Shown in pieces: positions 4,981 through 56,649 of a DNA stretch of 64,000 nucleotides. Positions within the stretch are counted from its first letter, which is position 1, and every line of letters starts with the position of its first letter. Location of the stretch: positions 3,041 through 67,040 of IMG/VR virus record IMGVR_UViG_3300049444_000051; one strand, written 5' to 3'. A model generated the notes under the pieces. That model worked only from the letters and a program-made list of their open reading frames with translations, had not been told where the DNA came from and searched no databases. Source of the DNA: a virus (lineage: Duplodnaviria > Caudoviricetes). The translations under genes were made by a program, and so were the position numbers.

Positions 4981-4983
4981 AAA

Positions 4984-39882: not shown

Positions 39883-39972
39883 ATCAGACTCCTCATTATG
39901 GGGTTGTGCGGGAAGCCTCACAGGGGGTGACGCAAGTACCCCTTGAGAACTAGGTGAAAGCACACATAAAGA

Positions 39973-41053: not shown

Positions 41054-43255
41054 GGTTGAGTCTCCTTCCTCGTCTATGAGAACCATGTCGATCAAGTCAT
41101 CGCTGACGAGGGAGTTGCTGTCATGACTGATCGTGTAGTGATACGTCTTTATTTTCTTAACGCCTCCGAAAAAGCCAGCCCCCGGTACAAGCTGATATTC
41201 CGGAACTGGTTTAATTTTCGCTTTATCCCATTTCTTCTTTTGTTCCTCAATTAACTTCTGCGCCTGTTGCAAATCCTTAAGATGTCGAGCAAGCTGCTCC
41301 TGCTGAAACGATACACGGGCCTTAGCTTCCTCAACGTTACGGATAGTGTGATCAGCTGGAGGTTCAATCCTTGAAACAGCAGCACTTGCTAAGGCAGTAT
41401 GCCCAACAGAAGTAGAAGCAAACTCACCTGTAATCGGATCGTGATTCTCGTTATAATCCAGAACTTCGACCAAGGACTCGTCTGGAGGCATTTCATCGAA
41501 ACGAACCTGGAAATGCGTAGACCTTACTTCCTTATATCCCTTGAAAGGATGCCTAAGACGTGCCAATCCGCGAGTAGGTACATGTTGAGTAGGGCCTGGA
41601 ACTGCCCGCGCGCGGTTCCAGATATTACGCTGCTGTTCGATATGCGCAATTGCCGCCGCTTTCGAGGTGAATCCCGGCGAGTTGGGCTTGAGAATAGCGC
41701 CCTTAGCGTTTTTACCTACGCCTGGAATATGGATAAAAGGTGCTTCCGGCAGTTCCCCCGTTTTGCTCTTGCGGCTAAATAGTTTGCGCAGGATTCCTGG
41801 TGCCTTGGGGTTAGTCCAGACGGTGCGTGCCGGATCATGATAACGCTCCGCTGTTGGAAAGGTCTGTCCAGAAGTGGCCGTGCCCTCTCCATAATGCAAA
41901 TGCGCACCATGGGGAATAGCATTCGGATCTTCAGGCTTACCAGCAGTTCCCCTCGAATGACCGGCACCATAAGGGCTTGGCTCACCGGGCGCTCCAGTCA
42001 ATCCAATTTTAGCATGTTGGCGTCCTGGCTGAATTTCAATGGGCTGTCCAGACCAGGGATCGAGTTTCAGGGCTCCACCTATCCCTGATTCCTGCTTTCC
42101 CATCCGAATTTCAGGCTGCTCGCCAAATATACCAAGCGTCTTTGCGTGCATTATTGCAAGGTTAATAGCTTGACGACGCCCTTCTGCTGCCGTATTAGCA
42201 ATAATAGGACCAACGCGCCAATGAAGAGCTTTGTTACCTACGTAACGTCCCGGCTTCTCTCCTGGGCCTGCACCTCCAAGAGCGTAACCAGGAGGAAGCC
42301 CGCGTTTTTTACGTTGTGTCTTCGGGCCGTCCGGTCCAGACGTAAATTCTCCGGTGTTAGGATCATGGTTGGGATTTCCGCCGTGACCCGGTATTAAATC
42401 TCCTATAAAAAACTCATCGTTCGCATACGCAACAATAGCCGCCATCTCGTCTTCGGTAATCGGAATCGCTTCTAGGTACGGCCCCCCAGTGCGTTCCACG
42501 AAACTGTCGTAGGACTCGTCATCCTGAGTCAGATCATAACCACATTCCGGGCATGTCTTGGCATCATGTGGAATATCAGCGCCACATTGCGAACACTGGT
42601 CCATTTTGGCAGCATCGTTGATGGCAGCTATTAAAGAATCGCCAAATCCAGCTACGGTGCCGGGTTTTACGAACTCTTCAGACGACGAGAGTCGCGGCAT
42701 AACTGAATCAGCGTGCTCATCACCTATCCGAAGCAAGCTACCGCCCCGCGCCGAATTGACAACGGCGAGATGATTGGCCCGGATATTGGTCTGCACAGCA
42801 TCGTACGATTCGCCATCATTAGTCACACCGTCACCAAATTTCAAGTCACAAAGGTAACCTAAGCTCAATTCCACCCGTCCATCCTCGAACGCTTTGACAG
42901 CATTTGCGTCCATCAAGGTCATAGGAACCCGCACGTAACCGCCATCTCTAATGACTTCATCGCCCACGCTGCCGACCGCATGTTGCTTCCAATTAACCGA
43001 CGACACCATCTCGTTAGGATGTCCAACCGTTACCGTTTTGTGGGCATACGACTTCAAGGAATCGGCGCTGAACACCTCGCTAGGCGGCCGGTAGACCCGC
43101 ACGCGATCCAGCTCGGGCTTACCAACCTCGCTCCCCCGGTAAATCTGAATGCCCGTGCGCGCCACGCGCGGCTGGGCAGTCAGAAAGCCATCCTTGGTCT
43201 TGCGCACTTTTGCCTGCGCGTCGAAAACGAGATCGTCATGCAGTTCGAGCGACAT
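40484..43255 (-). CDS. DUF2213 head maturation protease/scaffold with large central insertion
   Basis: ARTGIQIY, VTVGHP, ELSLGY, NHLAVV..ARGG; C-terminal coiled-coil scaffold. Confidence 0.88.
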   Translation of the reverse strand: MSLELHDDLVFDAQAKVRKTKDGFLTAQPRVARTGIQIYRGSEVGKPELDRVRVYRPPSEVFSADSLKSYAHKTVTVGHPNEMVSSVNWKQHAVGSVGDEVIRDGGYVRVPMTLMDANAVKAFEDGRVELSLGYLCDLKFGDGVTNDGESYDAVQTNIRANHLAVVNSARGGSLLRIGDEHADSVMPRLSSSEEFVKPGTVAGFGDSLIAAINDAAKMDQCSQCGADIPHDAKTCPECGYDLTQDDESYDSFVERTGGPYLEAIPITEDEMAAIVAYANDEFFIGDLIPGHGGNPNHDPNTGEFTSGPDGPKTQRKKRGLPPGYALGGAGPGEKPGRYVGNKALHWRVGPIIANTAAEGRRQAINLAIMHAKTLGIFGEQPEIRMGKQESGIGGALKLDPWSGQPIEIQPGRQHAKIGLTGAPGEPSPYGAGHSRGTAGKPEDPNAIPHGAHLHYGEGTATSGQTFPTAERYHDPARTVWTNPKAPGILRKLFSRKSKTGELPEAPFIHIPGVGKNAKGAILKPNSPGFTSKAAAIAHIEQQRNIWNRARAVPGPTQHVPTRGLARLRHPFKGYKEVRSTHFQVRFDEMPPDESLVEVLDYNENHDPITGEFASTSVGHTALASAAVSRIEPPADHTIRNVEEAKARVSFQQEQLARHLKDLQQAQKLIEEQKKKWDKAKIKPVPEYQLVPGAGFFGGVKKIKTYHYTISHDSNSLVSDDLIDMVLIDEEGDSTMSVTLTIDSIPVETTEIGATVIKKELDKLAKLTTDAATAAATAAATIAKKDEALVAKDAEIAVLTKKLADSTLTPQQKDEAVRERYETVNKAQAILGDRLVTDGKTDAEIRRQVVDDYMGGTAKTFTDEHVSAAFVVITKDAAVKPVGSARSLADSIRFAAPVMDARTKALADRDEYMRNAWKTPAKTA

Positions 43256-44066
43256 TGATAGGATGCTCCTGTGTGGGAGGCTTTAGGTCGTAATTCACGT
43301 AGCGCGAGACCCATGGTGCCAGCGTCTTAGCTTCCCGGTGCCACGGTTTTATACGCCCGCTCCAGAACACGATGCGCGCCTTTGCAAGCGAAGCCCTGCG
43401 TATGCGGATGTCGCGGTAGAAGCTGTAGACGCCATCTTGGTCGGCGGTCCAGCGTCCGACGAACGATTTTCCCAGGAGCTGGGCCGACAGATACGCCTGA
43501 TCGGACCCCAGGTAGCCTTTCTTGCATGCATCGCGCGGGGACGTAAGCGGATCGAACTCGGTCCACAGCCAGTCAAGCCGTCCGGCAGTAAATAGGAAAA
43601 GCGAACCATTCAACACCGTCTTAACGCGCGTGCCGGGAACATGATAAAAAACACATTCATCTGGGCGGTCGAACAATGGCGTCACGTCATTAACAATAAG
43701 CGCGTCAAGATCGAGACTAACTATCCGTTCACCCGGCGTGATTCCCATTGCACGCTGAGTGACAGGATCGAAGATTCGGAGGCGGCGGTAACAGCTCGGG
43801 AGATTTGCGCCCGAATAATTCGGAAGGTTACTATGATCTGGCCAGAGTGGAAAAGTCTCGCAATTCAAGCCGATTGGGTCGTCAGTAACGACGATGATTC
43901 GGAAAGAAAGTTTACAAAAGGTTTTTAGTTGGTGAATCAAGGCATGAACGTGCGTTGGCGTATAAGTCTCACGGAAAGGATGTTCTCCCCGTTTTCCAAC
44001 CCGTTGGTGCCATTTCCACATAATTATATTTAGCATATACTTCAACGCCAGTAATGACGAATCCAC
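43236..44066 (-). CDS. GT-A fold glycosyltransferase (GT8-like)
   Basis: VVTDDP, SLDLDALI (DxD), NGSLF, SDQAY. Confidence 0.82.
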   Translation of the reverse strand: MDSSLLALKYMLNIIMWKWHQRVGKRGEHPFRETYTPTHVHALIHQLKTFCKLSFRIIVVTDDPIGLNCETFPLWPDHSNLPNYSGANLPSCYRRLRIFDPVTQRAMGITPGERIVSLDLDALIVNDVTPLFDRPDECVFYHVPGTRVKTVLNGSLFLFTAGRLDWLWTEFDPLTSPRDACKKGYLGSDQAYLSAQLLGKSFVGRWTADQDGVYSFYRDIRIRRASLAKARIVFWSGRIKPWHREAKTLAPWVSRYVNYDLKPPTQEHPINVARTA

Positions 44067-44767
44067 GGTGCCTCAGACTGAGTTATATCGTGCCAAGGCT
44101 TCCAGCGTCCGTTAAAGGAAACTAATCTAGCATTACGTGGAAATATTTTTTTGTGTACATCCGAGCTATAACTATAAATTCCGTCGCCCTTAACCCATCC
44201 TGGGTATGCACCACGAAGTACATAACTAATCCAGGCTTGATCCGACCCATGTAAGCCATATCGGCGTGTAATTATCGGCGAACGCTCAGGGCTAAAGGTA
44301 TCAAAAACATCCTGCATCCTACCAGCTCGAAGCATAAAGAGACTTCCTTGATACTCTATCGGACGACCAGGACTAATGCGTTTCCAGCCAAGAAAACAGT
44401 CTGTGGTATTTGCAAATAACGGTGTCAAATCCCTAATGATCACGACATCGAGATCCATAGAAACTACTTTGCTATCCCTCGGAATTTTCATCGCATCGGT
44501 CACGGCTCCATTAAATAGACAGAGGCGTCGAAAACACGACGGTAAATGCCGTCCGCTTGGGTTAGGGATATCTTTGAATGTATCCCATAGCGGGTAAGTA
44601 TCTCCGACAACATCTTTTGGATCGTCCGTAATTGCTATTACTCTATGTGGTACCATCAAATTCCGGCTAATCATCCGTTTAAAAACATTTATGTGCTCTG
44701 CCGTGTAACTCGACCGACAGCCTAACTGACTCCACTTCCAACAACAGATCGTAATAGGCTCAACCAC
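44042..44767 (-). CDS. GT-A fold glycosyltransferase (paralog)
   Basis: ICCWKW, ITDDP, SMDLDVVI, YQGSLF, SDQAWI. Confidence 0.82.
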   Translation of the reverse strand: MVEPITICCWKWSQLGCRSSYTAEHINVFKRMISRNLMVPHRVIAITDDPKDVVGDTYPLWDTFKDIPNPSGRHLPSCFRRLCLFNGAVTDAMKIPRDSKVVSMDLDVVIIRDLTPLFANTTDCFLGWKRISPGRPIEYQGSLFMLRAGRMQDVFDTFSPERSPIITRRYGLHGSDQAWISYVLRGAYPGWVKGDGIYSYSSDVHKKIFPRNARLVSFNGRWKPWHDITQSEAPWIRHYWR

Positions 44768-44768
44768 A

Positions 44769-44912
44769 TTATACTCGCTCTGGCTCTTTCTCTACAGGCA
44801 ACTTTTCCAACACGACAGGCACGTCGAACCAATCGGAAGTCTTGTATTGAAGCACCAGTGTGCCATCGGCCTTTTTTAACCAGCGAAGATACACGACAAT
44901 TTTAAAGTTCAT
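44769..44912 (-). CDS. Small hypothetical protein (47 aa)
   Basis: Manual translation MNFKIVVYLRWLKK...; ATGA-coupled. Confidence 0.5.
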   Translation of the reverse strand: MNFKIVVYLRWLKKADGTLVLQYKTSDWFDVPVVLEKLPVEKEPERV

Positions 44913-45679
44913 AGTTGCACCTTATGATACCGAAACGAAAGAATTTTAGGCTTGGACCCTTTCGGAAAGGCCCGCACTATTTCTTTCAACTTAGCATCCT
45001 CTGGCTGTTTGCGAAGGTACTTGACCGTTGAAGAATCTCCAAGCTTTTCGTAGCGTACAAGTTCATCGGCCATAATCCGAATAGGCGCAGTCTCAGCACA
45101 ACGTCTCCGGTAATACCCATCTGACCCGTAATACCCTGACATCCGCTCATCGTACCCACCAATTTTCCAAAACATAGCCTTGGTCATAAACCAACTGTTT
45201 GGATGCGGATGGATCTTCTCACCCGAATGCTCACGCCGGCTAAAACGATAAATCACGTTCAGATCATGCTGCCCGTACACTAAGGTTTTTAGTACTTCGG
45301 CTGTTAGTACGTGATCCATGTCGGTGAGCATGACCCACACCATACTAGCGTGCACTGCACCGATATTACGAGCTGCAAGCCAATTCCACCTTACATCTAC
45401 CTCAATTCTAAAAAGTTGAAAATCAGCAATGGGACGATCCCATCTAAATTCTTCTAGCACTATTTGTTCAGCCGGGTGCCCAGGCGATCCATCATCGACA
45501 ATAATGCAGTGCATGTATTGCCGTAAGTCTTCCGGTAAACCGCGCCAGAAACCAATTTGCTTTCTAAAAAAATCTGGATTCTCGTAGTAAGGCATAATCA
45601 ACGTAAACGACTTGGGTACTGCGCCCAAAGGAACTTTCACAATGGGCGCGTTGTCGCACTTTTCGCGGCCGGTTTTCAT
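44909..45679 (-). CDS. GT2/GT7C-like glycosyltransferase
   Basis: LIMPYY, IIVDDGS, ARNIGA, LTDMDH, IGGYDERMSGY..SD. Confidence 0.85.
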   Translation of the reverse strand: MKTGREKCDNAPIVKVPLGAVPKSFTLIMPYYENPDFFRKQIGFWRGLPEDLRQYMHCIIVDDGSPGHPAEQIVLEEFRWDRPIADFQLFRIEVDVRWNWLAARNIGAVHASMVWVMLTDMDHVLTAEVLKTLVYGQHDLNVIYRFSRREHSGEKIHPHPNSWFMTKAMFWKIGGYDERMSGYYGSDGYYRRRCAETAPIRIMADELVRYEKLGDSSTVKYLRKQPEDAKLKEIVRAFPKGSKPKILSFRYHKVQL

Positions 45680-45680
45680 T

Positions 45681-46199
45681 TCAGGTAAGCTTCACAATCG
45701 CAAAGCCGTTCTTTTCAAGTTCTCGGATCAAGTCAAGTCCTTCGACCGTGACAGTACCAGACTTATCTTCTGGATATGGGGTAACACGTACATGACGTGG
45801 CATAGCCAGCCTCAAAGCTTCAGCAGCCTCTTTATCGGGTATCCACTCGAAACTATCCTTCTGATTGAAAGTAGACTCCTTGCCCTCATCCGTAAGATAG
45901 AACTCAAAGCGGAGTTCTTGCGAGAGCCAGCCACCTCTAGCACCAATAGATGACTTCAAGTCCACTCCCTCAGGGATGACCCGCCCACTATCAAGCCCAT
46001 CCGCCAACTGACGCAAGGCATGTGCAGTAGCCTTGCACGAAATACAATTACCGAGTTGGGGCGAACTCCCATCTCCAGTACGCTCAAACTGTCGTAAAGC
46101 CATCGCCTCAGTCTGCAACGGCAGGGACGCTCCCGCCCCTGCGAGGCCCAAGAACGCCAGAACATTTCGACGTGACGAACGCGCATTGTGATCCATCAT
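45681..46199 (-). CDS. Hypothetical protein with twin-arginine-like leader
   Basis: SSRRNVLAFLGLAGAGASLP. Confidence 0.55.
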   Translation of the reverse strand: MMDHNARSSRRNVLAFLGLAGAGASLPLQTEAMALRQFERTGDGSSPQLGNCISCKATAHALRQLADGLDSGRVIPEGVDLKSSIGARGGWLSQELRFEFYLTDEGKESTFNQKDSFEWIPDKEAAEALRLAMPRHVRVTPYPEDKSGTVTVEGLDLIRELEKNGFAIVKLT

Positions 46200-46225
46200 G
46201 ACGCTTTCCTTCCCTTGTGTTAGAC

Positions 46226-46882
46226 TCAGTTCCACGCTTCCTTAAACCAAGGCCACTTAATTGCTGCATCGGCATTCTTGGGACGCTTTGCTAGTACCAC
46301 TCTAGCTTCTGGCACGGCTGAAAGTCCGTCGCCGTTAATCTGCGAAAGACGAGGGAACCATGCGCGAGGCATCATGTCAAGATCAGGCAGCAGCCCCGCA
46401 ATAAAATCTTGATCTCCCCACAATCTATAAGTTATCTTCGGAGACCAAGTCGTATAAAGATGCGCATACCGGTTAGCCTCAAACACCATCACAGATGAAT
46501 TATACTTTTTTATAACCTTTTTGTCTCCCTTACCGTTGAACTCTCCCGCGTGAGGCACCAGGGCAAATGGCGACGGATAATCCGCAATCGGATCGAGCGG
46601 CTTGGTTATCAACACGTCGAGGTCCAAATAAAGTATACGCCCGCTCAACCCAAGCTTGGGATTGAATAGATTTAATTTACTCCACCAAGCATAGACGCCC
46701 CGTGGCGTACCAATAACAATACGGTCCATATCGGCGGGCAAATAAGCGGACCTATCTGTGAAACAAACGAAATCATGTGGACGATCCAGATTGCGCTTCA
46801 CCATCGAACGAAGCTTGACGACATACTCGGTCGTGAACGGAACATGCCCTTCGACAAATACGCAAGCAACAGTGAGGCTCAT
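46226..46882 (-). CDS. GT-A fold glycosyltransferase (paralog)
   Basis: YVVKLRSMVKRNL, CFTD, WWSKLNLF, YLDLDVLI, NSSVM, GDQDFI. Confidence 0.85.
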   Translation of the reverse strand: MSLTVACVFVEGHVPFTTEYVVKLRSMVKRNLDRPHDFVCFTDRSAYLPADMDRIVIGTPRGVYAWWSKLNLFNPKLGLSGRILYLDLDVLITKPLDPIADYPSPFALVPHAGEFNGKGDKKVIKKYNSSVMVFEANRYAHLYTTWSPKITYRLWGDQDFIAGLLPDLDMMPRAWFPRLSQINGDGLSAVPEARVVLAKRPKNADAAIKWPWFKEAWN

Positions 46883-47151
46883 TGCTGCGCCTGTTTCCTC
46901 GGCGTGATCTTGGCATTCCGCTGAAAGTGCCTGACCACTTGTTCCGCCATCGGAGCGTAGGTCTTCCACAACAAGTTGATAACCCTGGTACGCTCTTCAG
47001 CGCCAATCAAGGCACCGCTCTGCCGCATCAGAGTGCTGACCATGCTTCGTGCCAGACTCTCGACCCGGCAACCGTTTAGCGAGCATACCTGATCGCCGCA
47101 AGCACAATCGTAGCCGATATGAAGTTTTGGTTTAAGAAGCTGAAGGCTCAT
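46879..47151 (-). CDS. Hypothetical protein
   Basis: ORF track; ATGA-coupled on both sides. Confidence 0.55.
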   Translation of the reverse strand: MSLQLLKPKLHIGYDCACGDQVCSLNGCRVESLARSMVSTLMRQSGALIGAEERTRVINLLWKTYAPMAEQVVRHFQRNAKITPRKQAQQ

Positions 47152-47729
47152 GCCACTTTTGGCTCCATAATTGGACGCAAGATCTTTTTATAACGACCCT
47201 GCTGAGGAATTCTAAATTTTTGCTTTTTAACTTTTTGAAATATGCCACGAATCAACTCGCCACCATTGCGCCCGTTGGATCGTTCTAAACGAATTATTTT
47301 GTAGTCGTTAGCATCAGCAAGTCCTTCATATAAACATCGATGTGTTAGATAAAACCCGTGTTCGGGATAACCTTGACTGGCGCGGTCAAATATAATAAAA
47401 CCTTGCACCTTGGTAAGATAGTGTATTGTCTGCCAAACAGCCCGCTGGTCGAAGCAGTGTTCGCCGGTTCCGAAATCCGTGACCAGATCGAACTCACCAA
47501 GTTTGCGTGCAAGATCAGGCGGAAGTGGGCGGTTAAGATCGTGTGTGACTGTAGCACGGCCATTGCCATCAATCGATTCATAACGTCCACAACCAAGTTC
47601 TTTATACCAATCCTTGGCAAGACGCCGTACGCCGTGAGTAACCCACTGATCACCGAGTTCAAGGACACTAAAACCTTTCGGCAACTTCAAATCAATAACA
47701 AACTGCATAGTGTGCCCGAGAATTCCCAT
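47148..47729 (-). CDS. Class I SAM-dependent methyltransferase
   Basis: VLELG, YESID, HDLN, FDLVTDFGTGEH. Confidence 0.8.
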   Translation of the reverse strand: MGILGHTMQFVIDLKLPKGFSVLELGDQWVTHGVRRLAKDWYKELGCGRYESIDGNGRATVTHDLNRPLPPDLARKLGEFDLVTDFGTGEHCFDQRAVWQTIHYLTKVQGFIIFDRASQGYPEHGFYLTHRCLYEGLADANDYKIIRLERSNGRNGGELIRGIFQKVKKQKFRIPQQGRYKKILRPIMEPKVA

Positions 47730-47756
47730 ATCAACCCCTGCTATAACCTGACACCA

Positions 47757-48515
47757 TCACTGCACATTTATCCTTTGCTGCTGCTTATAGCATAAATAGT
47801 ACTCCCGCCCTGGCAGCAGCTTGATATGCGTTGCCTTTTCATAACCTTTCAACTCAGTCGCGGCCTTGTAAACACCATCGATATGCACGTCGTCGAACAT
47901 GATATAATCTTCGTGAAGCTGTCTCTGCGAAATCAACTGTGCTTCCAGCCGGACTTGCTCATATTTATGTTTTCCGTCGATAAAAGCAAATGTGATATGA
48001 TCGAAATTCTCTGATAGCCAATGTACCCCGGTCGATTGGATGAACTCTATTTGCTCCGACTCAGGCCACGGCTTGAGGATCTCGGCAAGCGTTTTATAAC
48101 CATCCACCTCGGCAATCGTGTTCCTGCGCACGCGCGCTAAAGGATCGATAACATCAAGAGAAACAACTCGCCCGGTTACATTAGGACGGCTATCGAGCAA
48201 CGCCCACAACAGGCACATGGCAGAAAATCCCTTGGCCGTACCGATATCTAATAAAAGCACTTCACCTTGTGAACGCGCTAATATATTACGTACGGTGCTG
48301 TAAATCACTCTACCATGCTGCCAATTTGGAGGATTGACCTTAAGCGGACAGGCCAGGACACGCGCTGCATGTTCGAGGCGCTTACGATCCAGCGCGTACC
48401 CCAAAGCACGTTCAAAAGCAATAATAGATCCATAAATCTGCGTGCATTCCTTCTGGAATACAGCGTTGTATTCGTCGTACGAAGGCTGTTTATGAGCAGG
48501 AACTTTCACGTTCAT
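47757..48515 (-). CDS. Class I SAM-dependent methyltransferase (Methyltransf_24-like)
   Basis: LDIGTAKGFSA, VSLD, FAFIDGKHKYE, IMFDD; start overlaps the MuF stop. Confidence 0.82.
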   Translation of the reverse strand: MNVKVPAHKQPSYDEYNAVFQKECTQIYGSIIAFERALGYALDRKRLEHAARVLACPLKVNPPNWQHGRVIYSTVRNILARSQGEVLLLDIGTAKGFSAMCLLWALLDSRPNVTGRVVSLDVIDPLARVRRNTIAEVDGYKTLAEILKPWPESEQIEFIQSTGVHWLSENFDHITFAFIDGKHKYEQVRLEAQLISQRQLHEDYIMFDDVHIDGVYKAATELKGYEKATHIKLLPGREYYLCYKQQQRINVQ

Positions 48516-49453
48516 TCCACTGGGATTAATAGGCAACGACACCTGTTGTGGGCGGGGATAAGCCCGCGAGCACGGTCGATGTCGTAAGGCCCGTCCTCCG
48601 CGATATTCTCGCAAATCATGCACACTCTGTCGTCTTCAGCGGTTTGCACGTTGACCTCGCCAAGACGGTTCAGCTTCGCCTCACGCCGCTGGATCAGGTT
48701 ACGTTGCCGTGGAGAAGGGCGCTTCCCGCGCGGAATCACTTCAGCCTTGCGAGCGTCTCCTATATGAAAATGCCGCCGCTCACCGCTGGCATCGATACCG
48801 ACTTGCTTGACGCCTGCCGCCGAGAACGTATCCAACGTGGCCTCGGCATAGGCGCGCTTCACGCTCCAATCGACCAGCATGTTCGAGCGCGCTTCGCCAA
48901 CCTTCACGAGGCGCTCCTTGACGGCAGTATAGGCTTGCATAGACGGTTCACAGCGCATCGTAGCATCGGTAAAGGCCCGTACGGTCTGTTGCACCGTGGC
49001 GGCAGCGATCCCTTGCGTTTCCGAAATTGCCGCATCAGCCAGAATAGGCAGGCATTGATTTATCTGCGTTGGCGCGTGCTGTAGTGTCATGCATGCGCTA
49101 CCTACACCTCGATTATAAGCTGAACGCACATACTTAACCGGCCACTCTCCGGTAACAGCTTGCTTCACGGCGGTATCAATAAACGAACTAAATGCCGCCA
49201 CGCTGTTGATGGAATTCTTATCGACCACGGCCTCGCGCACGAGGCTATCGACCTTACGCCAACGGCGATTGAACTCTTCCCGAAAGGCATTGCGCACATC
49301 GATTGTATTCGTAGGATCGACCGGCAGGGCATCTCTTACCCGGCACTTATGCCGAAAACCACCGGAAGCGTGGTAAGCAATAACCTGCTTCTTAGTCCAG
49401 ATTCGACCGGACGGACTTTTGTATTTATCAGGCCCTAGTTTCGTGAATGGCAT
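48512..49453 (-). CDS. MuF-like minor head protein
   Basis: DDRVC..C..PAHNRCRC C-terminal signature. Confidence 0.85.
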   Translation of the reverse strand: MPFTKLGPDKYKSPSGRIWTKKQVIAYHASGGFRHKCRVRDALPVDPTNTIDVRNAFREEFNRRWRKVDSLVREAVVDKNSINSVAAFSSFIDTAVKQAVTGEWPVKYVRSAYNRGVGSACMTLQHAPTQINQCLPILADAAISETQGIAAATVQQTVRAFTDATMRCEPSMQAYTAVKERLVKVGEARSNMLVDWSVKRAYAEATLDTFSAAGVKQVGIDASGERRHFHIGDARKAEVIPRGKRPSPRQRNLIQRREAKLNRLGEVNVQTAEDDRVCMICENIAEDGPYDIDRARGLIPAHNRCRCLLIPVE

Positions 49454-49905
49454 TATTTGAACGCTATCTTAGTATGTGCTGCACAATAGGGTCCGCTGCC
49501 TTTACGGACCAACCCGCAAAAAAGGAAATACTCTTTAGGCGCTGGATCATTGACCGGCCACTTGCACTGCTTGAGTTTTAACTTAGTCAGACGTACCGGT
49601 CTTCGCGATGTAGGTTCTAGGCGTTGCGTAACATAAACACCATCGTTTTTTGGATTTAACGCCGTAGGATAAAACCTAGTTTTCTTACTACGCGACTGCT
49701 TTTTCTCTTGTATAGACCCTAAATTGATGCTGACCCCGCTGCGCGGTTTTGACATGCCAAGCCTATGCCAACGTCCTATCAAAGAATTACCGGAAAGCGC
49801 GGGGAAATATTTTGCAGCTATTTTTGTAAAAGACATACCCTCGTTCTTGCCCTTAATGAGCAGCTCATCGTCTTCCTTAGTGAAATCGTGGTGATGTCTA
49901 CCCAT
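49453..49905 (-). CDS. gcrA: GcrA-like regulator
   Basis: N-terminal HTH FTKEDDELL..G.S..IA..SGNSLIGRWHRLG; C-terminal L..L...CKWP..D..FCG..PYC..H. Confidence 0.85.
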   Translation of the reverse strand: MGRHHHDFTKEDDELLIKGKNEGMSFTKIAAKYFPALSGNSLIGRWHRLGMSKPRSGVSINLGSIQEKKQSRSKKTRFYPTALNPKNDGVYVTQRLEPTSRRPVRLTKLKLKQCKWPVNDPAPKEYFLFCGLVRKGSGPYCAAHTKIAFK

Positions 49906-49911
49906 GGTAAC

Positions 49912-50142: not shown

Positions 50143-50606
50143 GGCATCTCCACTGTAAAATAAACATCGGGTGTCGTAATCAAGTTAGGCATATTAAGAG
50201 CCCACCACAGCGGGTTACACACGAAGGCCGCCTCGGAATGATACACGGCCGGACCTGGGGCAATGTAATCCGGCAGAACAAATGGACGCCGTAAGGGATT
50301 CGATATCTGGCGTTTGCCAAGACCATAGACGTTTTCTGTCTTGGGCAACTCATGAACGCCGTTTACATCCGTGATCGTCCTGCTGACATGCAACGAATTA
50401 ACCGGGTTGCAGTCTTGCCTATAGAGAGCGATCTCCCACTCGACCAAGACATCAGCACCAGGGATAACCCTGCCGCCTTCCTGCGCTGGAAGAATGCGAC
50501 CAAACAGCCGATCATAAGGTCCCTTAGTATCGAAAACCCACCAGACAGCCTGCACGCTTATGATAAAAAAGCAAATCGTTGCTCCTATCAGTACGGTCCT
50601 ACTCAT
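50139..50606 (-). CDS. Membrane-anchored protein of the lysis cassette
   Basis: N-terminal TM helix plus periplasmic-type domain with two Cys. Confidence 0.6.
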   Translation of the reverse strand: MSRTVLIGATICFFIISVQAVWWVFDTKGPYDRLFGRILPAQEGGRVIPGADVLVEWEIALYRQDCNPVNSLHVSRTITDVNGVHELPKTENVYGLGKRQISNPLRRPFVLPDYIAPGPAVYHSEAAFVCNPLWWALNMPNLITTPDVYFTVEMP

Positions 50607-50920
50607 TTAGTTTTTCCCTTATTGTCGTACTCTCCGTTAATAGCATCTCGAACCCAGCCTCTTCCATGCCTAAGCTCCCTTATATCTTCTTGAACGGCAA
50701 CTATCTCGGTGCGCTGGACCGCGAGTTGCGTCAAAATGTCACCCAATCTTTGGTTGGATGTGGTTAACGCGGCCATCTGGATCTCAAGAGAGGACATTTT
50801 GGTATCAACCTTGACCTCCACGCTCTCAACCCTTCCTCTTATTATCATCACGAAGACAGTGGCGCTCACGGCATAGACTATAACTTGCCCAACCTGTAGC
50901 AGATACGCCACTTCACCCAC
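50603..50920 (-). CDS. TM + coiled-coil protein (holin/spanin-like)
   Basis: N-terminal hydrophobic helix followed by a coiled coil. Confidence 0.55.
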   Translation of the reverse strand: MGEVAYLLQVGQVIVYAVSATVFVMIIRGRVESVEVKVDTKMSSLEIQMAALTTSNQRLGDILTQLAVQRTEIVAVQEDIRELRHGRGWVRDAINGEYDNKGKTK

Positions 50921-50937
50921 AAGGACGCCTCCTCAAG

Positions 50938-51267
50938 CTATTTTCGTTCCAAAGCAGTGACCCTCTCGGAAAGTGCGCGAATCCTGTCATCTAAAATATT
51001 AATATTTTTTTCCAAATCTACGACGTGACGAGCCAGTGGAGTTTCCTGCCGATCAACCCGCGAAGCAAAATCACGTACATATGCTCGAATTTCCACTGTT
51101 TGTAACCTGTTCGCTTCAATAGCCATTTCCGCCGAATTAATCCTGGCCGCCTGCGTTGCCACCCAGAATACAGTGAAAATCATATTGACTATAATCGTAA
51201 CGGCAAATACAGGGTTATTCTTTACCTGCCCTACTAAACCATTACCATTTTTGTCTCCGTTGCTCAT
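50938..51267 (-). CDS. TM + coiled-coil protein (lysis accessory)
   Basis: VFAVTIIVNMIFTVFWVA plus a coiled coil. Confidence 0.55.
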   Translation of the reverse strand: MSNGDKNGNGLVGQVKNNPVFAVTIIVNMIFTVFWVATQAARINSAEMAIEANRLQTVEIRAYVRDFASRVDRQETPLARHVVDLEKNINILDDRIRALSERVTALERK

Positions 51268-51270
51268 CTG

Positions 51271-51310
51271 AATAAATCCGGCGCACTGAAGATAGTCTCC
51301 AGTGCGCCGG
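51271..51310 (-). terminator. Intrinsic terminator
   Basis: CCGGCGCACTG-N11-CAGTGCGCCGG followed by ATTTATT on the minus strand. Confidence 0.7.
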
Positions 51311-51315
51311 GTTGT

Positions 51316-51531
51316 CTAGACCGCTGGAGCCGCGACCGCAGCGTTGAGTTTCGCTGCATCGGAAGTCGAGAGGTCGAAGATCTGGTCGATCTTAGCCTGT
51401 ACTTCAGGAGTAACAGCCTTGCCGAGAGCATCGATGACCTGTTGCTTTAGCGTAGCTACCATAGCCACAACAGAATCAACACCAGCGGACTCTGCCTGCA
51501 CCGCAGCCAAGACTTCATCAATTGATGCCAT
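51316..51531 (-). CDS. Small Ala-rich helical protein
   Basis: ORF track; AGGAGGA RBS. Confidence 0.75.
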   Translation of the reverse strand: MASIDEVLAAVQAESAGVDSVVAMVATLKQQVIDALGKAVTPEVQAKIDQIFDLSTSDAAKLNAAVAAPAV

Positions 51532-51580
51532 CTATTTTCTCCTCCTACGCACCAGGGGACCGCCTGGATCGGTCTATTAG

Positions 51581-51829
51581 CTAACCTAGTACAGACTGCA
51601 ACTTAGCACTTGAAGCCTGTACAGTCGTATGTATCGCATCTAGCTTTTGCTGGTTCTGTACAGAAGTCAAGACGAGAACTTCCCGTAGCAGCTTATAGAA
51701 CACTTCCAGCTCGTCCCATCGTTTGGCTTTTACAAAACCAGCTACGATGAGCAGAAAGTTACTAAGATCCATGACCACTCCCCGTCTGAGAATCTCTAAA
51801 AATAACTCTTGTGTTGGAGATGTTGCCAA
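51581..51829 (-). CDS. Hypothetical protein
   Basis: ORF track. Confidence 0.6.
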   Translation of the reverse strand: MATSPTQELFLEILRRGVVMDLSNFLLIVAGFVKAKRWDELEVFYKLLREVLVLTSVQNQQKLDAIHTTVQASSAKLQSVLG

Positions 51830-51842
51830 CTGATGACACCGC

Positions 51843-52373
51843 TTACGGCTTGGCGTTGAGGATCGGGTTCACGCCAGCGGGCGCGACCTTGGGAACCTCC
51901 ACGGTATTTTTCTTCTCGCCCTCGCCACCAAGCAACAGCGGCACGGTCTTCACCGCATCTTCCCGCAATGCAACCAGCGTGTTATCGCCGGGGAAGCCAT
52001 CGACAACCAGTCCCTTCGCCTTCTGGTATTTAGCAACGGCGTCCTTCGTTTTAACCCCGATGTACCCATCCACGTCGAGGTTGGGAGAAGGAGACACTAC
52101 TTGATTAAGCAGCTTTTGAATTTTCGATACATAATCCGGTGCATAAGTTAAAACCCCTGCCGCAGTCTGCAACTCTGGACGAACAGCCGGGAAATCAGAT
52201 GCACCTCTGGCTTTGAGCCAATCAAGCAACGGTGGAAAATTAAAAGCATCCTTGAGATCTTCCCCAACGGCGTTAACCGAAAACCCGCGCGCCAGGATTC
52301 GCCCCAGCAGCGGCAGCATAGAACTGACCTTCCCGAAGTATGGCAGAAATTTCATGAATAGTGCGAAGTCCAT
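51843..52373 (-). CDS. Peptidoglycan-binding (PG_binding_1) protein without a recognisable catalytic domain
   Basis: IQKLLN..LDVDGYIGVKTKDAVAKYQKAKGLVVDGFPGDNT. Confidence 0.8.
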   Translation of the reverse strand: MDFALFMKFLPYFGKVSSMLPLLGRILARGFSVNAVGEDLKDAFNFPPLLDWLKARGASDFPAVRPELQTAAGVLTYAPDYVSKIQKLLNQVVSPSPNLDVDGYIGVKTKDAVAKYQKAKGLVVDGFPGDNTLVALREDAVKTVPLLLGGEGEKKNTVEVPKVAPAGVNPILNAKP

Positions 52374-52383
52374 GTTAGCTCCT

Positions 52384-53595
52384 TCAGGTTGTTGTGACGC
52401 CAACGAATTCCCAATCTACCTTGTCCTTGCCGGAAATACTTAACCTTCGAGCAGTTTCCGGCGAAAGATCTATCCCAGCATCATTCCTTGGTACCTTGCC
52501 TTTATTCGGACCAGATGGAAGTGGTGTTTTATTAGCGTAGCAAGTCTCTGCTACTGGCCTAGTGTTTTTAGATGGATAGTCATCATCAACATTCCAAGGG
52601 CCGATGTCTTCGATGGAAGCTTCTACCGTCTTCCCATTAGCGAACACCCTGACTTTCGGCCTATCGCCCTTGAGTCTATATGGTAAAGCTACATATAAAT
52701 CCGTGTCATTAAGTGGCTCCCCTGTGTAGGCACTATCATTCGGGTCTGCCGCACCGCCAAACACGGTCGCCGTGATATTCATCTGCCTGCCTTTTACCTC
52801 AGGGTGAGGCACCGAAACTGCCGGGGGAACCTCCTCCTTGAGCAAGGCTTTCCAGGTGTTGGGTCCTACGATCCCATCAACTGTCAAACCTTCAGACTTT
52901 TGGAAATCCTTGACCGCCTGCTCAGTGACCTTCCCAAATATGCCATCCACAAACAGCAGCAATTGAACGTATTCGACATCCTCGCCTTTAGAGCCTAGCT
53001 GTAAAACAGGAAGCTCGCGGCTTACAGGAGGAGGTTTTGGAATTGGCGGTAGCTCTGGAGGTTTCGGAATCAGCGATGGCTCTGGCGGCACAACGACCGG
53101 CGCATCTACTGTAAAAGTACCACCGCCACATGCCTCGAAGTGCATTGGATCTGTACGGCCCTTATAATCGCCTCCCCATCGAAACCCAACATGCTTAAAA
53201 GCATCTACCGCCAACTGCGGCATTGTGCCGTGCCCAGTGTTGAACCCATTGTGCTCGGCATCGATATCAATTGCTGCTCCAAAAGCGTGGTTAGACCATC
53301 GATTTGAACCGGCAATCTTGCGCGGATTATAAGCCCCGTCATACACGGACAACCTGAGTGCATCGACCTTCTTCTGATCGTGACCGCACTTGTCCCAGAT
53401 TTCCTGAAGAGCAACCTGCAAAGCTGGCGCTGCCTTCTTATGAAATTTAATTGAGCTTATTGGCTTGCCTCCATAGTACATTTGAAATGGAGGTATGACC
53501 TTGACCAGTTGTGCTTCCAATTCTGCCGATCCAGGCATCCCATAAAAATCTATGAGAACCTTCTCAATATCTCTGGGCCACGTAACCGTTACCAT
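52384..53595 (-). CDS. Endolysin: M15 peptidase + PG_binding_1 + RlpA-like DPBB domain
   Basis: SNHAFGAAIDI..DPMHFE; VDGIFGKVTEQAVKDFQ..VDGIVGPNTW; DIGPW..GIDLS. Confidence 0.88.
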   Translation of the reverse strand: MVTVTWPRDIEKVLIDFYGMPGSAELEAQLVKVIPPFQMYYGGKPISSIKFHKKAAPALQVALQEIWDKCGHDQKKVDALRLSVYDGAYNPRKIAGSNRWSNHAFGAAIDIDAEHNGFNTGHGTMPQLAVDAFKHVGFRWGGDYKGRTDPMHFEACGGGTFTVDAPVVVPPEPSLIPKPPELPPIPKPPPVSRELPVLQLGSKGEDVEYVQLLLFVDGIFGKVTEQAVKDFQKSEGLTVDGIVGPNTWKALLKEEVPPAVSVPHPEVKGRQMNITATVFGGAADPNDSAYTGEPLNDTDLYVALPYRLKGDRPKVRVFANGKTVEASIEDIGPWNVDDDYPSKNTRPVAETCYANKTPLPSGPNKGKVPRNDAGIDLSPETARRLSISGKDKVDWEFVGVTTT

Positions 53596-53723
53596 TACCC
53601 TAACGCTTCCTTATCCCCAATGTGCAGCAGCACAACGCTTGCAAACCATCAACGGCCCCCAAACCGTAATGCCCTTACACCTATGATAACGGCCGTGAAA
53701 AAGTTTGCACCACAGTTCACGCA

Positions 53724-53930
53724 TCATGTTTTCACCTTGCGCCCAGCTAAAATAATAAACACCAAAAACAAAGGCCAAAGAGTCACAACACCAGTAAGCG
53801 TGATAAACGCAGCTACGATAGTAGCTACTTTGGATTTCCTAAAAGAATCGCGCACCGGTTCCCAAAGCTGTTTGGGCGATGCCAGCAGCAAAATCAGCGT
53901 AATAAGTTCGCCAATTATAAAATATATCAT
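53724..53930 (-). CDS. Two-TM small protein, holin candidate
   Basis: Two hydrophobic helices, basic C-terminus, just upstream of the endolysin. Confidence 0.5.
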   Translation of the reverse strand: MIYFIIGELITLILLLASPKQLWEPVRDSFRKSKVATIVAAFITLTGVVTLWPLFLVFIILAGRKVKT

Positions 53931-54574
53931 GAAAGTATTTTGCCTTTAGCATCGAAGCGCATGGCTTCAAGCATCTTGCGCGCCTCTTCGCCCAGCTTCT
54001 CACCGATGCTCTTCTCGATAAAATCAAATCCAGCAGGTGTCAATGCATATTCCGTAGCTGAATCTTCACTTAGAGTAGCAGCCAACTTGTGCGCACGAAC
54101 TATCGCCGCAAACTTTTCATGCATAAGATTTTCAAAATCTGCTTGCGAAAGGGTCTTAACCGCTCCCAGAAGCCCAAGCGCTCCTGCACCCGAGATCAAC
54201 CCATATCCAACCAATGCTGCCCCGATACCGACTAGCGCCACTTTTCCAGCGAACTTCAACGTGTCAGGATCAGTCAGCTTCTTCTTGAAATACGCGCCCC
54301 AAGTCTCCTTTGAAGCACTGGCAGATGGCTCTGCCGACCCAAGAGTGCCTTCCTGCTTATTATGAAAAGCCAAACCGCCGCCACCAAACTTTATACCAGA
54401 TGGACTAATAGAGAAAGAAGACACACCACCTCCGGAAGTCCATTGCCCTTGCGGATCGCGCGGCTCATTAGGGTCGTAATCTTTCATTGGAACCATCGCG
54501 CGCAATACCTCTGGCAACGCTGCCCCAAACATTTGTTGCACCTCGCCTGGAGCCAGGATTATTGCATCTCTCAT
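53927..54574 (-). CDS. Putative capsid-internal/ejection protein with tag motif and hydrophobic hairpin
   Basis: KDYDPNEPRDPQGQWTSGGG; GKVALVGIGAALVGYGLISGAGALGLLG; coupled to the portal stop. Confidence 0.6.
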   Translation of the reverse strand: MRDAIILAPGEVQQMFGAALPEVLRAMVPMKDYDPNEPRDPQGQWTSGGGVSSFSISPSGIKFGGGGLAFHNKQEGTLGSAEPSASASKETWGAYFKKKLTDPDTLKFAGKVALVGIGAALVGYGLISGAGALGLLGAVKTLSQADFENLMHEKFAAIVRAHKLAATLSEDSATEYALTPAGFDFIEKSIGEKLGEEARKMLEAMRFDAKGKILS

Positions 54575-56649
54575 TGCACTAGCTCCACGCGCATGATTGG
54601 ACGATTATGTTCATCCCGATGTACTGAATTAACCCGATAATGCCCGTGCCGATGGAATAGTAATTCTTTTTCCTCGGCATGGCCAGTAAAACCACCAAAC
54701 TGATACAGATCTAGCGCCTTTGCACCTTTCTTGGCGCTGATCTCTAGTATAACTTCATCTCGACTTTGCGGGGTACGCCCTAATAAGTGCCCTAATGGCC
54801 CCGAATGCTTCCCGGTAGGCTGGGCAAATGTACGCGACACATGGTCCCGATCTAAAGACGTTGATTGATAATTTTTAATTGGAAGCTCCTTACCCACAAG
54901 AGATTCTGCATTGTCATGCACAACTGGATTTTGCAATCCTCGATACACTACCGTGTCTTTTGCAAGCGTAGATTTATCCAAAGCAGAATCAAGATGATTA
55001 ACAGCTTCTACCCATTTTGAACTCCAACGTCCCTCCCCACGCAACCAAGCATTCATATCATCTGAACCCGTTGCATAACTCAAAAGCGCAGTATACTCAT
55101 TCTGATTAAACATCCCACTTTGTTTGACGTGAGCAGATGGATCGGACGAATTTACCCCACCCCCTGAAGAAGCCCATTTCCCATCTGGACCACGCGGCTG
55201 GTCAGGAGAATAGTCTTTTGTTGGTACCTTCGCTCCGACCTTGATCTTAGTAATAGCCAACTCATGCGCGTGCTGCTGCTCGGTCTGCGCTGCTTGCTGC
55301 TCTTGCTGGGCGACCTCCTGCGGGCTTGGCCCTACAGGTTCGAGCTTACCAGCGTCGTAGTCTTCCAACGTTTGTTGTAGACCTGGATACGTGCCATCCT
55401 CGATAAGCTGGTTCTCGCGAGCCTCGCGTAGCACCTCGGGTGGAATCAGCCCCATATCATGGTCAATCTTGAAAGTGGCAGCTTTCTTCGAGGCCAGATC
55501 CGCCTTCTCAGTCTCGGTCATCTGCCAGAGGCTATTCCACTCGTAGAAAATGCCGGGGTCGCGCGTGCCCAAAGCAGAGCGAATAAGTACCTCATCAAGG
55601 GTGTGCAGCGCAGGAGACAACTCGGTCTTTTGTTCCGAATTAATATGGTCGTAGTAATTCCTGGTGTCGCTCTCACCAGTCGCAGACAACCCGGCAGGTG
55701 ACTGCCCCAGCATGCGCGTAGCGGGAATATCAGCCGCACCGCCAGCCATCAACAAGTAAAGTTTCAAAATATCCGGGAGGCTGCCAAAATTAAGTGTCTT
55801 GGTCTCGAACTCCTCGTCGGCATCGAGCAGTAGCATATTATTGACCGACTTCATCATATTTCCATATGTGAAGCGTGAAGTCATACGATCTGTATATTCT
55901 TGCGATGTAAGGTTCTCACTAAGATTCGGTACCTTGATAATATCAATCTTGGCCTCGTGCGTTAACGACGCAATGGCCGCAGCAACCGCGCTAGCACTGT
56001 TGGTCGCATCGTACACAGATTGCAAGATACTATCGCCCCACATCCGGCTTTCTGCAATCGTAAGATCCGGGACCTCACGTCCTATCAAGCGTACGACGCG
56101 CGAGGGATGGATACGACGCAGAAGCTCGCTGTTCTTTGCATTCACCGAAGTTACACTAAGCCCGTAATATTCCGGATGCCCGTAGAACGGATCCATGACA
56201 TCATCGATGATCTGCCCGGAAGTCGTTATCTCGTAGCGACTAAAAACATGCACGAATTTCAGAGAACCTTGTTTAACCCGATCTAAAACAAGCTCTTGCT
56301 CAGGACTACCAGCCCCATCGACACCAAGAACAATAACAGCGCCGCCATAAAGACGGGCGCGAATGAGCGCTCGTTTGAGCTTCTGCTGTACGGCATGCTG
56401 TTTCTCTGCTTCTTCAAGCAGCTCGATTTGAGGCTGATCGGCCTGCCAATTCCGCCATGCGCGTGTTGAATCCTTCGCTGGGATATCAATAACCTTGGCG
56501 GCAATCCAATCGCTTCGGTAAGCCGCATCCAATTGCATCTTATCGAGCTGTGTATAAACATAACGGTTATGAAACGCCTTATCCTTGGGCGTGCCAAGAT
56601 TCGTAACTAGATTCTTCAGTCCATCAAGCATGCGAAAAGGGGCGTTCAT
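54571..56649 (-). CDS. Portal protein (DUF1073/HI1409 family) with C-terminal VIP2-like ADP-ribosyltransferase domain
   Basis: Portal: LDAAYRSDWIAAKVIDIPAKDSTR, ARLYGG, AADIPATRMLGQSPAGLSATGESD..NYYD. ART: YRG, YQSTS, EEKELL. Confidence 0.9.
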   Translation of the reverse strand: MNAPFRMLDGLKNLVTNLGTPKDKAFHNRYVYTQLDKMQLDAAYRSDWIAAKVIDIPAKDSTRAWRNWQADQPQIELLEEAEKQHAVQQKLKRALIRARLYGGAVIVLGVDGAGSPEQELVLDRVKQGSLKFVHVFSRYEITTSGQIIDDVMDPFYGHPEYYGLSVTSVNAKNSELLRRIHPSRVVRLIGREVPDLTIAESRMWGDSILQSVYDATNSASAVAAAIASLTHEAKIDIIKVPNLSENLTSQEYTDRMTSRFTYGNMMKSVNNMLLLDADEEFETKTLNFGSLPDILKLYLLMAGGAADIPATRMLGQSPAGLSATGESDTRNYYDHINSEQKTELSPALHTLDEVLIRSALGTRDPGIFYEWNSLWQMTETEKADLASKKAATFKIDHDMGLIPPEVLREARENQLIEDGTYPGLQQTLEDYDAGKLEPVGPSPQEVAQQEQQAAQTEQQHAHELAITKIKVGAKVPTKDYSPDQPRGPDGKWASSGGGVNSSDPSAHVKQSGMFNQNEYTALLSYATGSDDMNAWLRGEGRWSSKWVEAVNHLDSALDKSTLAKDTVVYRGLQNPVVHDNAESLVGKELPIKNYQSTSLDRDHVSRTFAQPTGKHSGPLGHLLGRTPQSRDEVILEISAKKGAKALDLYQFGGFTGHAEEKELLFHRHGHYRVNSVHRDEHNRPIMRVELVQ

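Follow-up and report, generated by a model that had tools for sequence, protein, structure and literature searches.

A shared peptide tag ahead of cargo modules in phage head proteins and its possible role in their loading and release

Introduction

Phages inject proteins together with their DNA, and how such proteins are chosen, loaded and released is little understood beyond T4 and a few other models. In T4, the internal proteins and the ADP-ribosyltransferase (ART) Alt carry a short N-terminal leader, the capsid targeting sequence (CTS), and these proteins enter the head, where gp21, the prohead protease, cuts them before they are injected. The subject of the present work is a short peptide tag that occurs four times, on three proteins, in a 64 kb window taken out of a single-contig virus record (IMGVR_UViG_3300049444_000051; 67,040 bp, completeness rating 100%), and that recurs in front of variable modules in the head genes of other phages. 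The window is the whole stretch of 64 kb that was analysed, and all coordinates without other reference are positions in it.

Two other kinds of short peptide resemble such a leader. The cargo-loading peptides of encapsulins are short, sit on a flexible tether rich in Gly and Pro, bring cargo into a shell of the HK97 fold, are usually C-terminal and are left uncut. In secreted bacterial toxins the Rhs motif PxxxxDPxGL and the CdiA motif VENN are conserved short motifs placed before a swappable toxin module, the Rhs motif being also a point of cleavage, and a large folded core is needed for this cleavage.

The searchable text of PMC5512222 also covers the loading of T4 internal proteins, in its introduction. 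As far as the searched text of that paper (Iyer et al. 2017) and of PMC9503650 (Iyer et al. 2022) goes, phage polyvalent or head-fused effectors carry ART, Zeta, NUDIX, InPase and PBECR domains on a portal, a MuF protein or a capsid-processing peptidase, their genes lie among the head genes, and processing by zincin-like metallopeptidase domains is proposed for the polyvalent proteins. The MuF polymorphic toxins of temperate phages have a head protein as the carrier, to which toxins of varying kind are attached C-terminally (Jamet et al. 2017, PMC5576092).

Four tags in the window

The genes concerned are all encoded on the minus strand, and the four copies of the tag lie where an earlier sequence-only reading of this DNA had placed them, in proteins of the length in amino acids (aa) given here:

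42338..42400, minus strand: Tag1, residues 286–306 of the 923-aa protein; reads DLIPGHGGNPNHDPNTGEFTS, with the class 1b core NPNHDPNTGEF and then TSG.
41414..41458, minus strand: Tag2, residues 600–614 of the 923-aa protein; reads DYNENHDPITGEFAS, class 1b, D-Y-NENHDPITGEF-AS.
55156..55218, minus strand: Tag3, residues 478–498 of the portal-ART protein; reads KDYSPDQPRGPDGKWASSGGG, class 2, K-D-Y-SPDQPRGPDGKW-ASSGGG.
54425..54487, minus strand: Tag4, residues 30–50 of the 215-aa open reading frame (ORF); reads MKDYDPNEPRDPQGQWTSGGG, M-K-D-Y-DPNEPRDPQGQW-TSGGG.

Tag4 is one codon (Met) longer than it was first written, and the host proteins are as they had been described, namely a DUF2213 protein of 923 aa, a portal fused to an ART of 692 aa, and the next gene of 215 aa. 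A strict core pattern matches only these four sites in the six frames of the whole 67,040-bp genome. A hidden Markov model (HMM) made from 132 tags of other phages, none of them from this window, was run on all stop-to-stop segments of the genome and gave 39.5 bits for Tag4 (i-E 2e-11), 34.1 bits for Tag3 (i-E 1e-9), 10.2 bits for Tag2 (i-E 0.031) and 9.8 bits for Tag1 (i-E 0.042), with the next-best genome segment at 4.2 bits and the top reversed decoy at 3.7 bits. Tags 1 and 2 reach only about 10 bits because their three-residue spacing is rare in the profile.

In Tag2, Tag3 and Tag4 the core is preceded by a Tyr, and in Tag1, Tag3 and Tag4 it is followed by a Gly-rich spacer. Tag1 is atypical, with no aromatic ahead of N-P-N and with its Asp shifted 8 residues further upstream; a DUF2213 homologue (P0008) has a regular tag at the equivalent position. 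Tag2 follows an acidic lead-in and precedes a spacer rich in Ser and Thr, while Tag3 is placed between the portal crown linker and the ART. Tags 3 and 4 are alike as protein and show many synonymous differences as DNA. Every Asp within the tags adjoins a Pro, as had been noticed earlier, but this is a consequence of the motif itself.

The tag family and its spread

A search with words and HMMs, starting from the four tags, led to portal, MuF, ART and DUF2213 proteins of other samples in which the motif is repeated between domains. The tag is about 25 residues long and consists of a hydrophobic lead-in, a variable 'dialect' residue, an aromatic, the core and a Gly-rich spacer, in that order; the core reads N/D-P-N/D, then H or Q-P-R, then D-x2-3-G-(R/K/Q/E)-(F/W)-(T/A/S)-(S/T). 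The forms 'H-D...G-x-F' and 'Q-P-R-D...G-x-W' are present together within one protein, indicating that they are two forms of a single motif.

By a degenerate DNA pattern for NPNHDxxGRF at least 120 stretches were found in the viral contig collection, with a chance expectation of about 3 by our own estimate, and by a pattern for DQPRDxxGKW 83 stretches, with an expectation of about 1 estimated in the same way. Positions that the patterns left free are also conserved: a hydrophobic residue four places ahead of the core is followed by Lys and by Phe or Tyr, and past the F/W of the core come a small residue, a Ser or Thr and several Gly in a row. When a profile of 136 tags was searched against 1.84 billion representative proteins, at least 5000 proteins matched at E<=1e-3, 898 at E<=1e-10 and 66 at E<=1e-30. 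The highest number of tags in one protein is 20, in P0101 (7334 residues), and together with P0166 (5313 aa, 16 copies) this protein is an extreme polyprotein. In 596 Gb of bacterial genomes the exact form KFNPNHDxxGRF occurs just 19 times, mainly in Alphaproteobacteria. The proposal that a modular tag recurs in head genes before variable effector modules thus describes this phage and also thousands of other phage proteins.

Neither Pfam nor NCBIfam has a model that matches the tag, and a profile search of PDB sequences gave no clear example of it. The half-motif QPRDASGRF (E 0.022) in chain Af of PDB 9RKU, the baseplate core complex of phage 7-7-1, was not counted as a tag. This chain, a 'putative tail biosynthetic protein' of 454 aa present in three copies, reads QPRDASGRFAYSGGPG at residues 83–98, which corresponds to the second half of the tag only and is either a chance match or a relic. 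A tblastn search with 26-residue tag peptides against 50,697 phage records gave nothing up to E 10, with queries that are very short and were filtered for low complexity.

Association with head genes and position ahead of modules

Among 92 viral ORFs tagged with the first form, 15 have a portal domain, 6 a MuF domain and 4 a prohead protease, and many have an ART or another effector. For the second form the corresponding numbers are 20 portals, 5 MuF domains and 7 proteases (S78, S78_2 or DUF2213) in 65 ORFs, and the portals are of the PF06381, PF04860, Mu, lambda and P23-45 types. In the pooled set of 157 ORFs a portal domain of one of five families is counted on 34, MuF on 11 and a prohead protease of the S78, S78_2, ClpP or DUF2213 family on 11; with ARTs and other effectors these are the most frequent Pfam domains on tagged proteins. 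Portal, MuF and prohead-protease domains are found on tagged ORFs at frequencies far above chance, so that the tag is tied to head genes as had been supposed, and the refuting case named beforehand, an occurrence of the motif independent of head genes, is not borne out. The tag copies in bacterial genomes, which are in prophages, have portal, terminase, capsid and protease genes as neighbours.

The cargo domains on tagged viral ORFs include ART, ART-PolyVal, Zeta toxin, Acb1, PBECR nucleases, NUDIX, InPase and topoisomerase IB, and the multi-tag proteins of an unbiased library carry ART, PARP, Zeta, MuF and Tpt1 domains. Two ORFs tagged with the second form contain Acb1, an anti-CBASS nuclease (PF23474, best E 9e-39), which suggests that some phages may load this anti-defence enzyme into the head. 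In a Hyphomicrobiaceae prophage (L207, 1363–2001, minus strand) a tag is joined to a toxin domain of the CdiA-CT RNase A type (E 2e-13), a domain of contact-dependent inhibition that would here be reused as head cargo.

Where the upstream end is defined, 88 of 216 tags (41%) lie at most 70 residues from the upstream stop, and in N-terminal tags an ATG is usually found 5–20 residues ahead of the aromatic. Where the downstream end is defined, only 5 of 197 tags (2.5%) have 40 residues or less behind them, the median downstream length being 236 aa. These counts mean that the tag heads a module, with or without anything upstream; it is a leader and not a symmetric linker. In three loci (L173, L001 and L121) a tag stands ahead of the prohead protease itself.

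An addressing role accounts for the leader position, and a pure cutting site between domains does not. The tag could still be a recognition site of the maturation protease that punctuates polyproteins and addresses nothing. This would agree with proteins in which as many as 20 tags separate successive modules, with dialect residues that are specific for the genome, and with the Asp that accompanies the DUF2213 head type (both described below). Against it, 41% of the tags have no upstream domain, the conserved span of more than 20 residues is much longer than known prohead-protease sites, and the core is identical across unrelated protease families; we regard cutting alone as improbable.

Carrier proteins of this phage

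The carrier proteins and their parts are as follows:

40484..43255, minus strand: head polyprotein of 923 aa with DUF2213 protease, Zn ribbon, acidic spacer, Tag1, basic cargo, Tag2 and scaffold-like C-terminal part.
42716..43201, minus strand: DUF2213 protease domain, residues 19–180 (PF09979, E 7e-48).
41516..42337, minus strand: basic cargo segment, residues 307–580, Pro/Gly-rich, between Tag1 and Tag2.
40487..41413, minus strand: scaffold-like C-terminal part, residues 615–923, helical, Ala/Lys-rich, 8.7% Asp, second stretch matched by PHROG 530.
54571..56649, minus strand: fusion of portal and ADP-ribosyltransferase, 692 aa (PF06381 at residues 39–394, E 3e-107).
54610..55110, minus strand: ART cargo domain, residues 514–680 (PF03496, E 1e-14).
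53927..54574, minus strand: 215-aa ORF with its ATG overlapping the portal stop, made up of lead-in, Tag4, Gly-rich spacer, hydrophobic Gly-zipper stretch and helical tail.
54158..54253, minus strand: hydrophobic Gly-zipper stretch, residues 108–139 of the 215-aa ORF, read directly from the sequence.

PHROG 530, 'head maturation protease', matches the 923-aa protein in two stretches, and Zn-ribbon families match residues 220–242. The DUF2213 protein of typical relatives has 382–412 aa, which leaves about 450 residues extra in this one. The homologue P0008 shows 43% identity across the protease, the Zn ribbon and Tag1, and the cargo past Tag1 is unalignable. In P0008 a degenerate tag-like stretch, K-N-S-G-R-F-T-G, is found at about residues 27–38, before the protease domain, and this may be a third, decayed tag. 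The basic cargo segment contains 14% Lys and Arg, 11% Pro, 5.2% Glu and 1.5% Asp, has no Pfam match and is probably disordered. By analogy with the usual layout of the family, a protease followed by a scaffold, the C-terminal part would be a scaffold. Megablast with the protease gene against phage records gave no match.

In the portal protein a single-sequence AlphaFold model of Tag3 with the ART was too poor to use. The 215-aa ORF has neither a Pfam nor a PHROG match, and the ESM Atlas held nothing usable for the two cargo modules of unassigned type, the basic segment and the module of this small ORF. The Gly-zipper stretch is of a kind that could insert into a membrane. A module of tag and Gly zipper is found as a C-terminal fusion to portal_3 in P0010 and P0019 and as a separate gene here, indicating that it works fused or free.

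Selection at the protein level and genome dialects

Tags of one locus are on average more alike than tags of different loci, with 40% identity at variable positions within a locus versus 23% across loci, and 40 of 47 loci exceed the between-locus mean. Among identical residues within a locus 43% use different codons, which rules out recent homogenisation of the DNA and makes a role as recombination cassette unlikely; DNA-level homogenisation of the tags was rejected on these codon counts. The tags could in principle be recombination joints, that is, homology cassettes for swaps of cargo modules, comparable to the borders VENN or DPxGL in polymorphic toxins, as they stand exactly at the borders of highly variable modules and as one and the same module can be part of a fusion in one phage and an independent gene in another. 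Within one genome, peptides that are almost identical can differ in as many as 11 of 20 codons, which leaves little DNA homology for recombination and places the conservation at the level of the protein, and we consider such a function very improbable.

Least credible is that the tag serves only as a flexible linker, passive and without a function of its own. The Gly-rich spacer after the tags and a disordered single-sequence model of the region (a model too poor to read) would suit it, but conservation of the core is strong over at least 5000 protein clusters, the selection is on the protein, and the place ahead of modules is fixed. Self-cleavage at Asn-Pro or Asp-Pro was also rejected, since the Pro is replaced by Glu in about one sixth of the tags and the unit is too short for a catalytic fold.

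The position most often shared within a locus is the residue before the aromatic, which agrees in 90% of the pairs within a locus and in 32% of those between loci. Entire loci are uniform for K, D, E, N, A, L, F or G at this place. Fixed in each genome and free between genomes, this residue behaves as would be expected of a contact with a reader encoded by the same genome. A signal recognised after injection, by which modules that have passed unfolded through the tail would be refolded, localised or activated in the infected cell, fits a core that is nearly constant over hosts of several phyla and might thus meet a universal host partner. The dialect residue follows the head type of the phage and not the host, and the prohead protease and the scaffold, which act in the procapsid, are tagged as well, so that this function appears scarcely probable.

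The residue before the aromatic and DUF2213-type heads

Over the whole family, most tags have Lys before the aromatic, and Asp stands there in about 5–17% (rare in the first form, 12 of 71 in the second form). DUF2213-type loci were defined as those holding a DUF2213 protease, a PF06381-type portal (portal_3) or a DUF2184 capsid gene, as found by tblastn with the phage's own proteins. An Asp one or two residues before the aromatic is present in 16 of 17 tags and 14 of 15 loci of this type, versus 7 of 235 tags and 7 of 162 loci elsewhere (Fisher p ~1e-14 per locus, a statistic inflated by shared ancestry). In loci with an HK97-type portal, Lys or Arg is found in 14 of 18 tags. The flanking Asp that the sequence-only reading had taken as part of the motif is therefore not a property of the family, in which Lys is usual, and holds as a signature of the DUF2213 type. 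The HK97 protease cleaves the capsid protein after Lys, and the proteases of T4 and phiKZ cleave after Glu; a charged cut-site residue specific for the lineage would fit a family of prohead proteases.

The Asp content of the 923-aa protein is 1.5% in the cargo versus 8.4% in the protease, 11.6% in the acidic spacer and 8.7% in the scaffold part, and all 4 Asp of the cargo segment adjoin a Pro. P0008 shows a similar contrast, with 1.1% Asp in the cargo versus 7–10% around it, though the cargo itself is unalignable. A disordered cargo poor in Asp beside a scaffold rich in Asp is what an Asp-directed protease would be expected to impose, the cargo surviving and the scaffold being destroyed, and this is circumstantial evidence for such a protease.

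D-A junctions had been reported near the N-termini of three proteins. Those of the capsid and the DUF2213 protein are present. Two or three relatives retain them as D-[A/G/S] (for the capsid, two relatives with D-A and D-S), which is weak evidence. The third had been ascribed to a MuF protein, but this phage appears to have none, as PF04233 has no match across the whole genome (E<=0.1; genome rated 100% complete).

Proposed mechanism

We give about an even chance to a double role modelled on the T4 CTS, in which the tag would first be bound inside the procapsid and afterwards cleaved by the prohead protease that the phage itself encodes, the residue ahead of the aromatic setting the specificity. 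The tag would head modules that travel inside heads, either fused behind a portal, a MuF protein, a prohead protease or a scaffold, or free-standing alongside. A head component encoded by the phage, most likely the prohead protease, would read the tag in the procapsid, retain the module and cut it loose. The conserved core would be the common docking element, and the residue before the aromatic the determinant of the lineage, Lys or Arg in HK97-type heads and Asp in DUF2213-type heads. In the present phage three products would be co-ejected with the DNA: the ART, severed from the 12-fold portal; a basic, Asp-poor and disordered protein, excised from the polyprotein of protease and scaffold; and a small hydrophobic protein with the Gly zipper. 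The sequences show the tag with its spread, its place ahead of modules, its tie to head genes, the constraint on the protein, the dialects and the pairing of Asp with the DUF2213 head type; docking and cutting, the nature of the reader, the bond that is cut and the injection itself are inferred. The main argument for cleavage is that, unless cut, a cargo joined to the portal has no way out through its channel, and the main argument for addressing is that free proteins and proteases carry N-terminal tags.

The tag could instead be a cargo-loading peptide that binds the interior of the procapsid, at the capsid shell, the scaffold or the portal, and that stays uncut, the cargo acting while attached or not being injected. 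A core with two conserved aromatics followed by a flexible Gly-rich spacer would serve this purpose, and so would N-terminal leaders, 41% of the tags, which have nothing upstream to be cut from, and proteases that are themselves tagged. When AlphaFold was run on the tag alone with the alignment of 136 tags, the model was a compact turn bridged once between His and Phe, at a predicted local distance difference test (pLDDT) of 70–78, a hint that the core may form a small knob. Set against docking alone are the exit of portal-fused cargo, which would be blocked, the tags on both sides of the cargo in the protease-scaffold protein, and the Asp-poor cargo amid Asp-rich parts, which suggests pressure from a protease; nor is a partner known that is conserved over five portal families. 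We consider docking without cutting rather unlikely.

Several points weigh against docking followed by cutting. Cleavage, packaging and injection of the tagged proteins are predictions made from sequence. The ART has 6.1% Asp and the small protein 3.6%, so that neither is Asp-poor; both could be shielded by folding. Tag1 is without a regular pair of Asp and aromatic, the link between Asp and head type could be due to shared ancestry, and since head genes travel together, the reader could be the protease, the portal or the capsid alike. One core occurs together with four protease families, among them ClpP, which is of a different fold, and known prohead-protease sites are just 3–4 residues long. 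Modules fused to internal head proteins should need no extra address, and several tags on one polypeptide would be redundant for docking.

No tag was found in any cultured phage among the cultured or well-studied candidates checked, and tagless relatives of the tagged systems exist. Neither phi24B, including its virion-packaged polyvalent protein gp47, nor the MuF-ART of Raoultella phage RP180 nor Rhizobium phage RHEph04, with a portal and a 2H-like extension, has the tag, and the cultured-phage relatives of a tagged portal (P0018) are without the extension. In RHEph04 (NC_041908) the portal (4954–6801) has a C-terminal extension with two motifs of the H-x-T type, which has the look of a 2H phosphoesterase and is joined without a tag, and the DUF2213 protein is a plain one of 374 aa. 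A 2811-aa ORF of locus L062 was considered as a counterpart of phi24B gp47 and rejected, as only the lengths are equal.

If docking followed by cutting is accepted, cutting specifically at Asp by the DUF2213 protease of this phage is a tentative proposal, to which we give somewhat less than an even chance. The boldest reading, with clearly less than an even chance, is a general and programmable 'cargo leader code', in which the core would address any module to the interior of the procapsid and the single residue ahead of the aromatic would set the protease that releases it, Lys or Arg for HK97-type proteases, Asp for the DUF2213 type and other residues elsewhere. Anti-defence enzymes, toxins and internal proteins would then be fused to portal, protease or MuF, or be loaded free, and afterwards injected.

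The tag would provide a sequence handle on injected effectors in metagenomes, including the anti-defence Acb1, ARTs and nucleases, and it would offer a testable rule for the processing of effectors. The dialects suggest that the specificity of prohead proteases may be readable from genomes, and the tag could serve as a portable label by which proteins of choice are packed into phage capsids. The present window is a compact test case, as it combines four tags and three arrangements of the carrier with a single protease.

Genome and head gene module

The nearest cultured relatives of the PF06381-type portal are in Rhizobium, Aminobacter and Xanthomonas phages, at about 43% identity. These relatives, together with a gene for a GcrA-type cell-cycle regulator, point to an alphaproteobacterial host. 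The GcrA-type gene is located within the head-gene block (49453–49905, minus strand; PF07750, E 5e-21) and might possibly give the phage control over the cell cycle of the host. The capsid, cement and protease genes are on the same strand as the portal-ART gene and 11–16 kb away from it, and between the portal block and the protease-capsid block there are genes for peptidoglycan-binding, GcrA-like, methyltransferase and glycosyltransferase proteins. The two remaining head genes are:

38917..39963, minus strand: major capsid protein of the DUF2184 type (PF09950, E 2e-82), in which the PHROG 264 alignment begins at residue 26.
39973..40434, minus strand: cement protein of the E217 gp24 / Pam3 gp6 type (PF22758, E 1e-27).

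The true start of the capsid protein is probably Met28 or Met31, and no close relative of the capsid gene was found among viral contigs. Directly after the tagged 215-aa ORF there is an untagged protein of 403 aa (52384–53595, minus strand) with an M15 D-Ala-D-Ala peptidase and peptidoglycan-binding domains, which may be a virion-associated wall hydrolase rather than an endolysin, and this is followed by a second peptidoglycan-binding protein (51843–52403, minus strand). The region 43236–48623 (minus strand) holds glycosyltransferase-like and methyltransferase genes with weak to moderate Pfam matches, and immediately upstream of the portal lies an ORF of 1170 aa (57541–61053, minus strand) with neither a Pfam nor a PHROG match.

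Comparison with known systems

The tag is not described in the searched text of the polyvalent-protein papers or the MuF-toxin paper, nor did full-text literature searches return it. Nor does the searched literature contain its two forms, the rule of position, the dialects of genomes or the association of Asp with DUF2213.

The polyvalent and head-fused effectors share the architecture seen here, with portal and ART in one ORF, and the same domain families, as named in the searched text on them, are found on tagged proteins. No peptide at the junctions is described in the searched text of PMC5512222 and PMC9503650. The three tagged proteins of this phage have no Pfam match to a zincin-like metallopeptidase, and some polyvalent proteins, such as phi24B gp47, are untagged. 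MuF is among the carriers of tagged modules in other phages, which is a likeness to the MuF toxins; the present phage differs in having no MuF protein, and the MuF-ART of RP180 is untagged. A linker, motif or cleavage is not mentioned in the text of PMC5576092.

Like the encapsulin peptides the tag is short and carried on a flexible tether, but its sequence differs from theirs, and binding of the capsid by the tag is hypothetical. The border motifs of Rhs and CdiA differ from the tag, which is specific for phage heads, is repeated, and is often at the very N-terminus.

By analogy, the closest functional counterpart would be the CTS of T4 with its protease gp21. Both are N-terminal leaders on proteins that include an ART, with loading and injection being presumed in the case of the tag, and both have a hydrophobic residue two places before the charged residue that precedes the proposed cut. 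The tag is not known to resemble the CTS in sequence. The protease of this phage is of the DUF2213 type and not of the gp21 type. The conserved part of the tag lies after the proposed cut and that of the T4 sequence before it, and the tag, unlike the CTS, is also found internally, many times in one protein and together with at least four families of protease.

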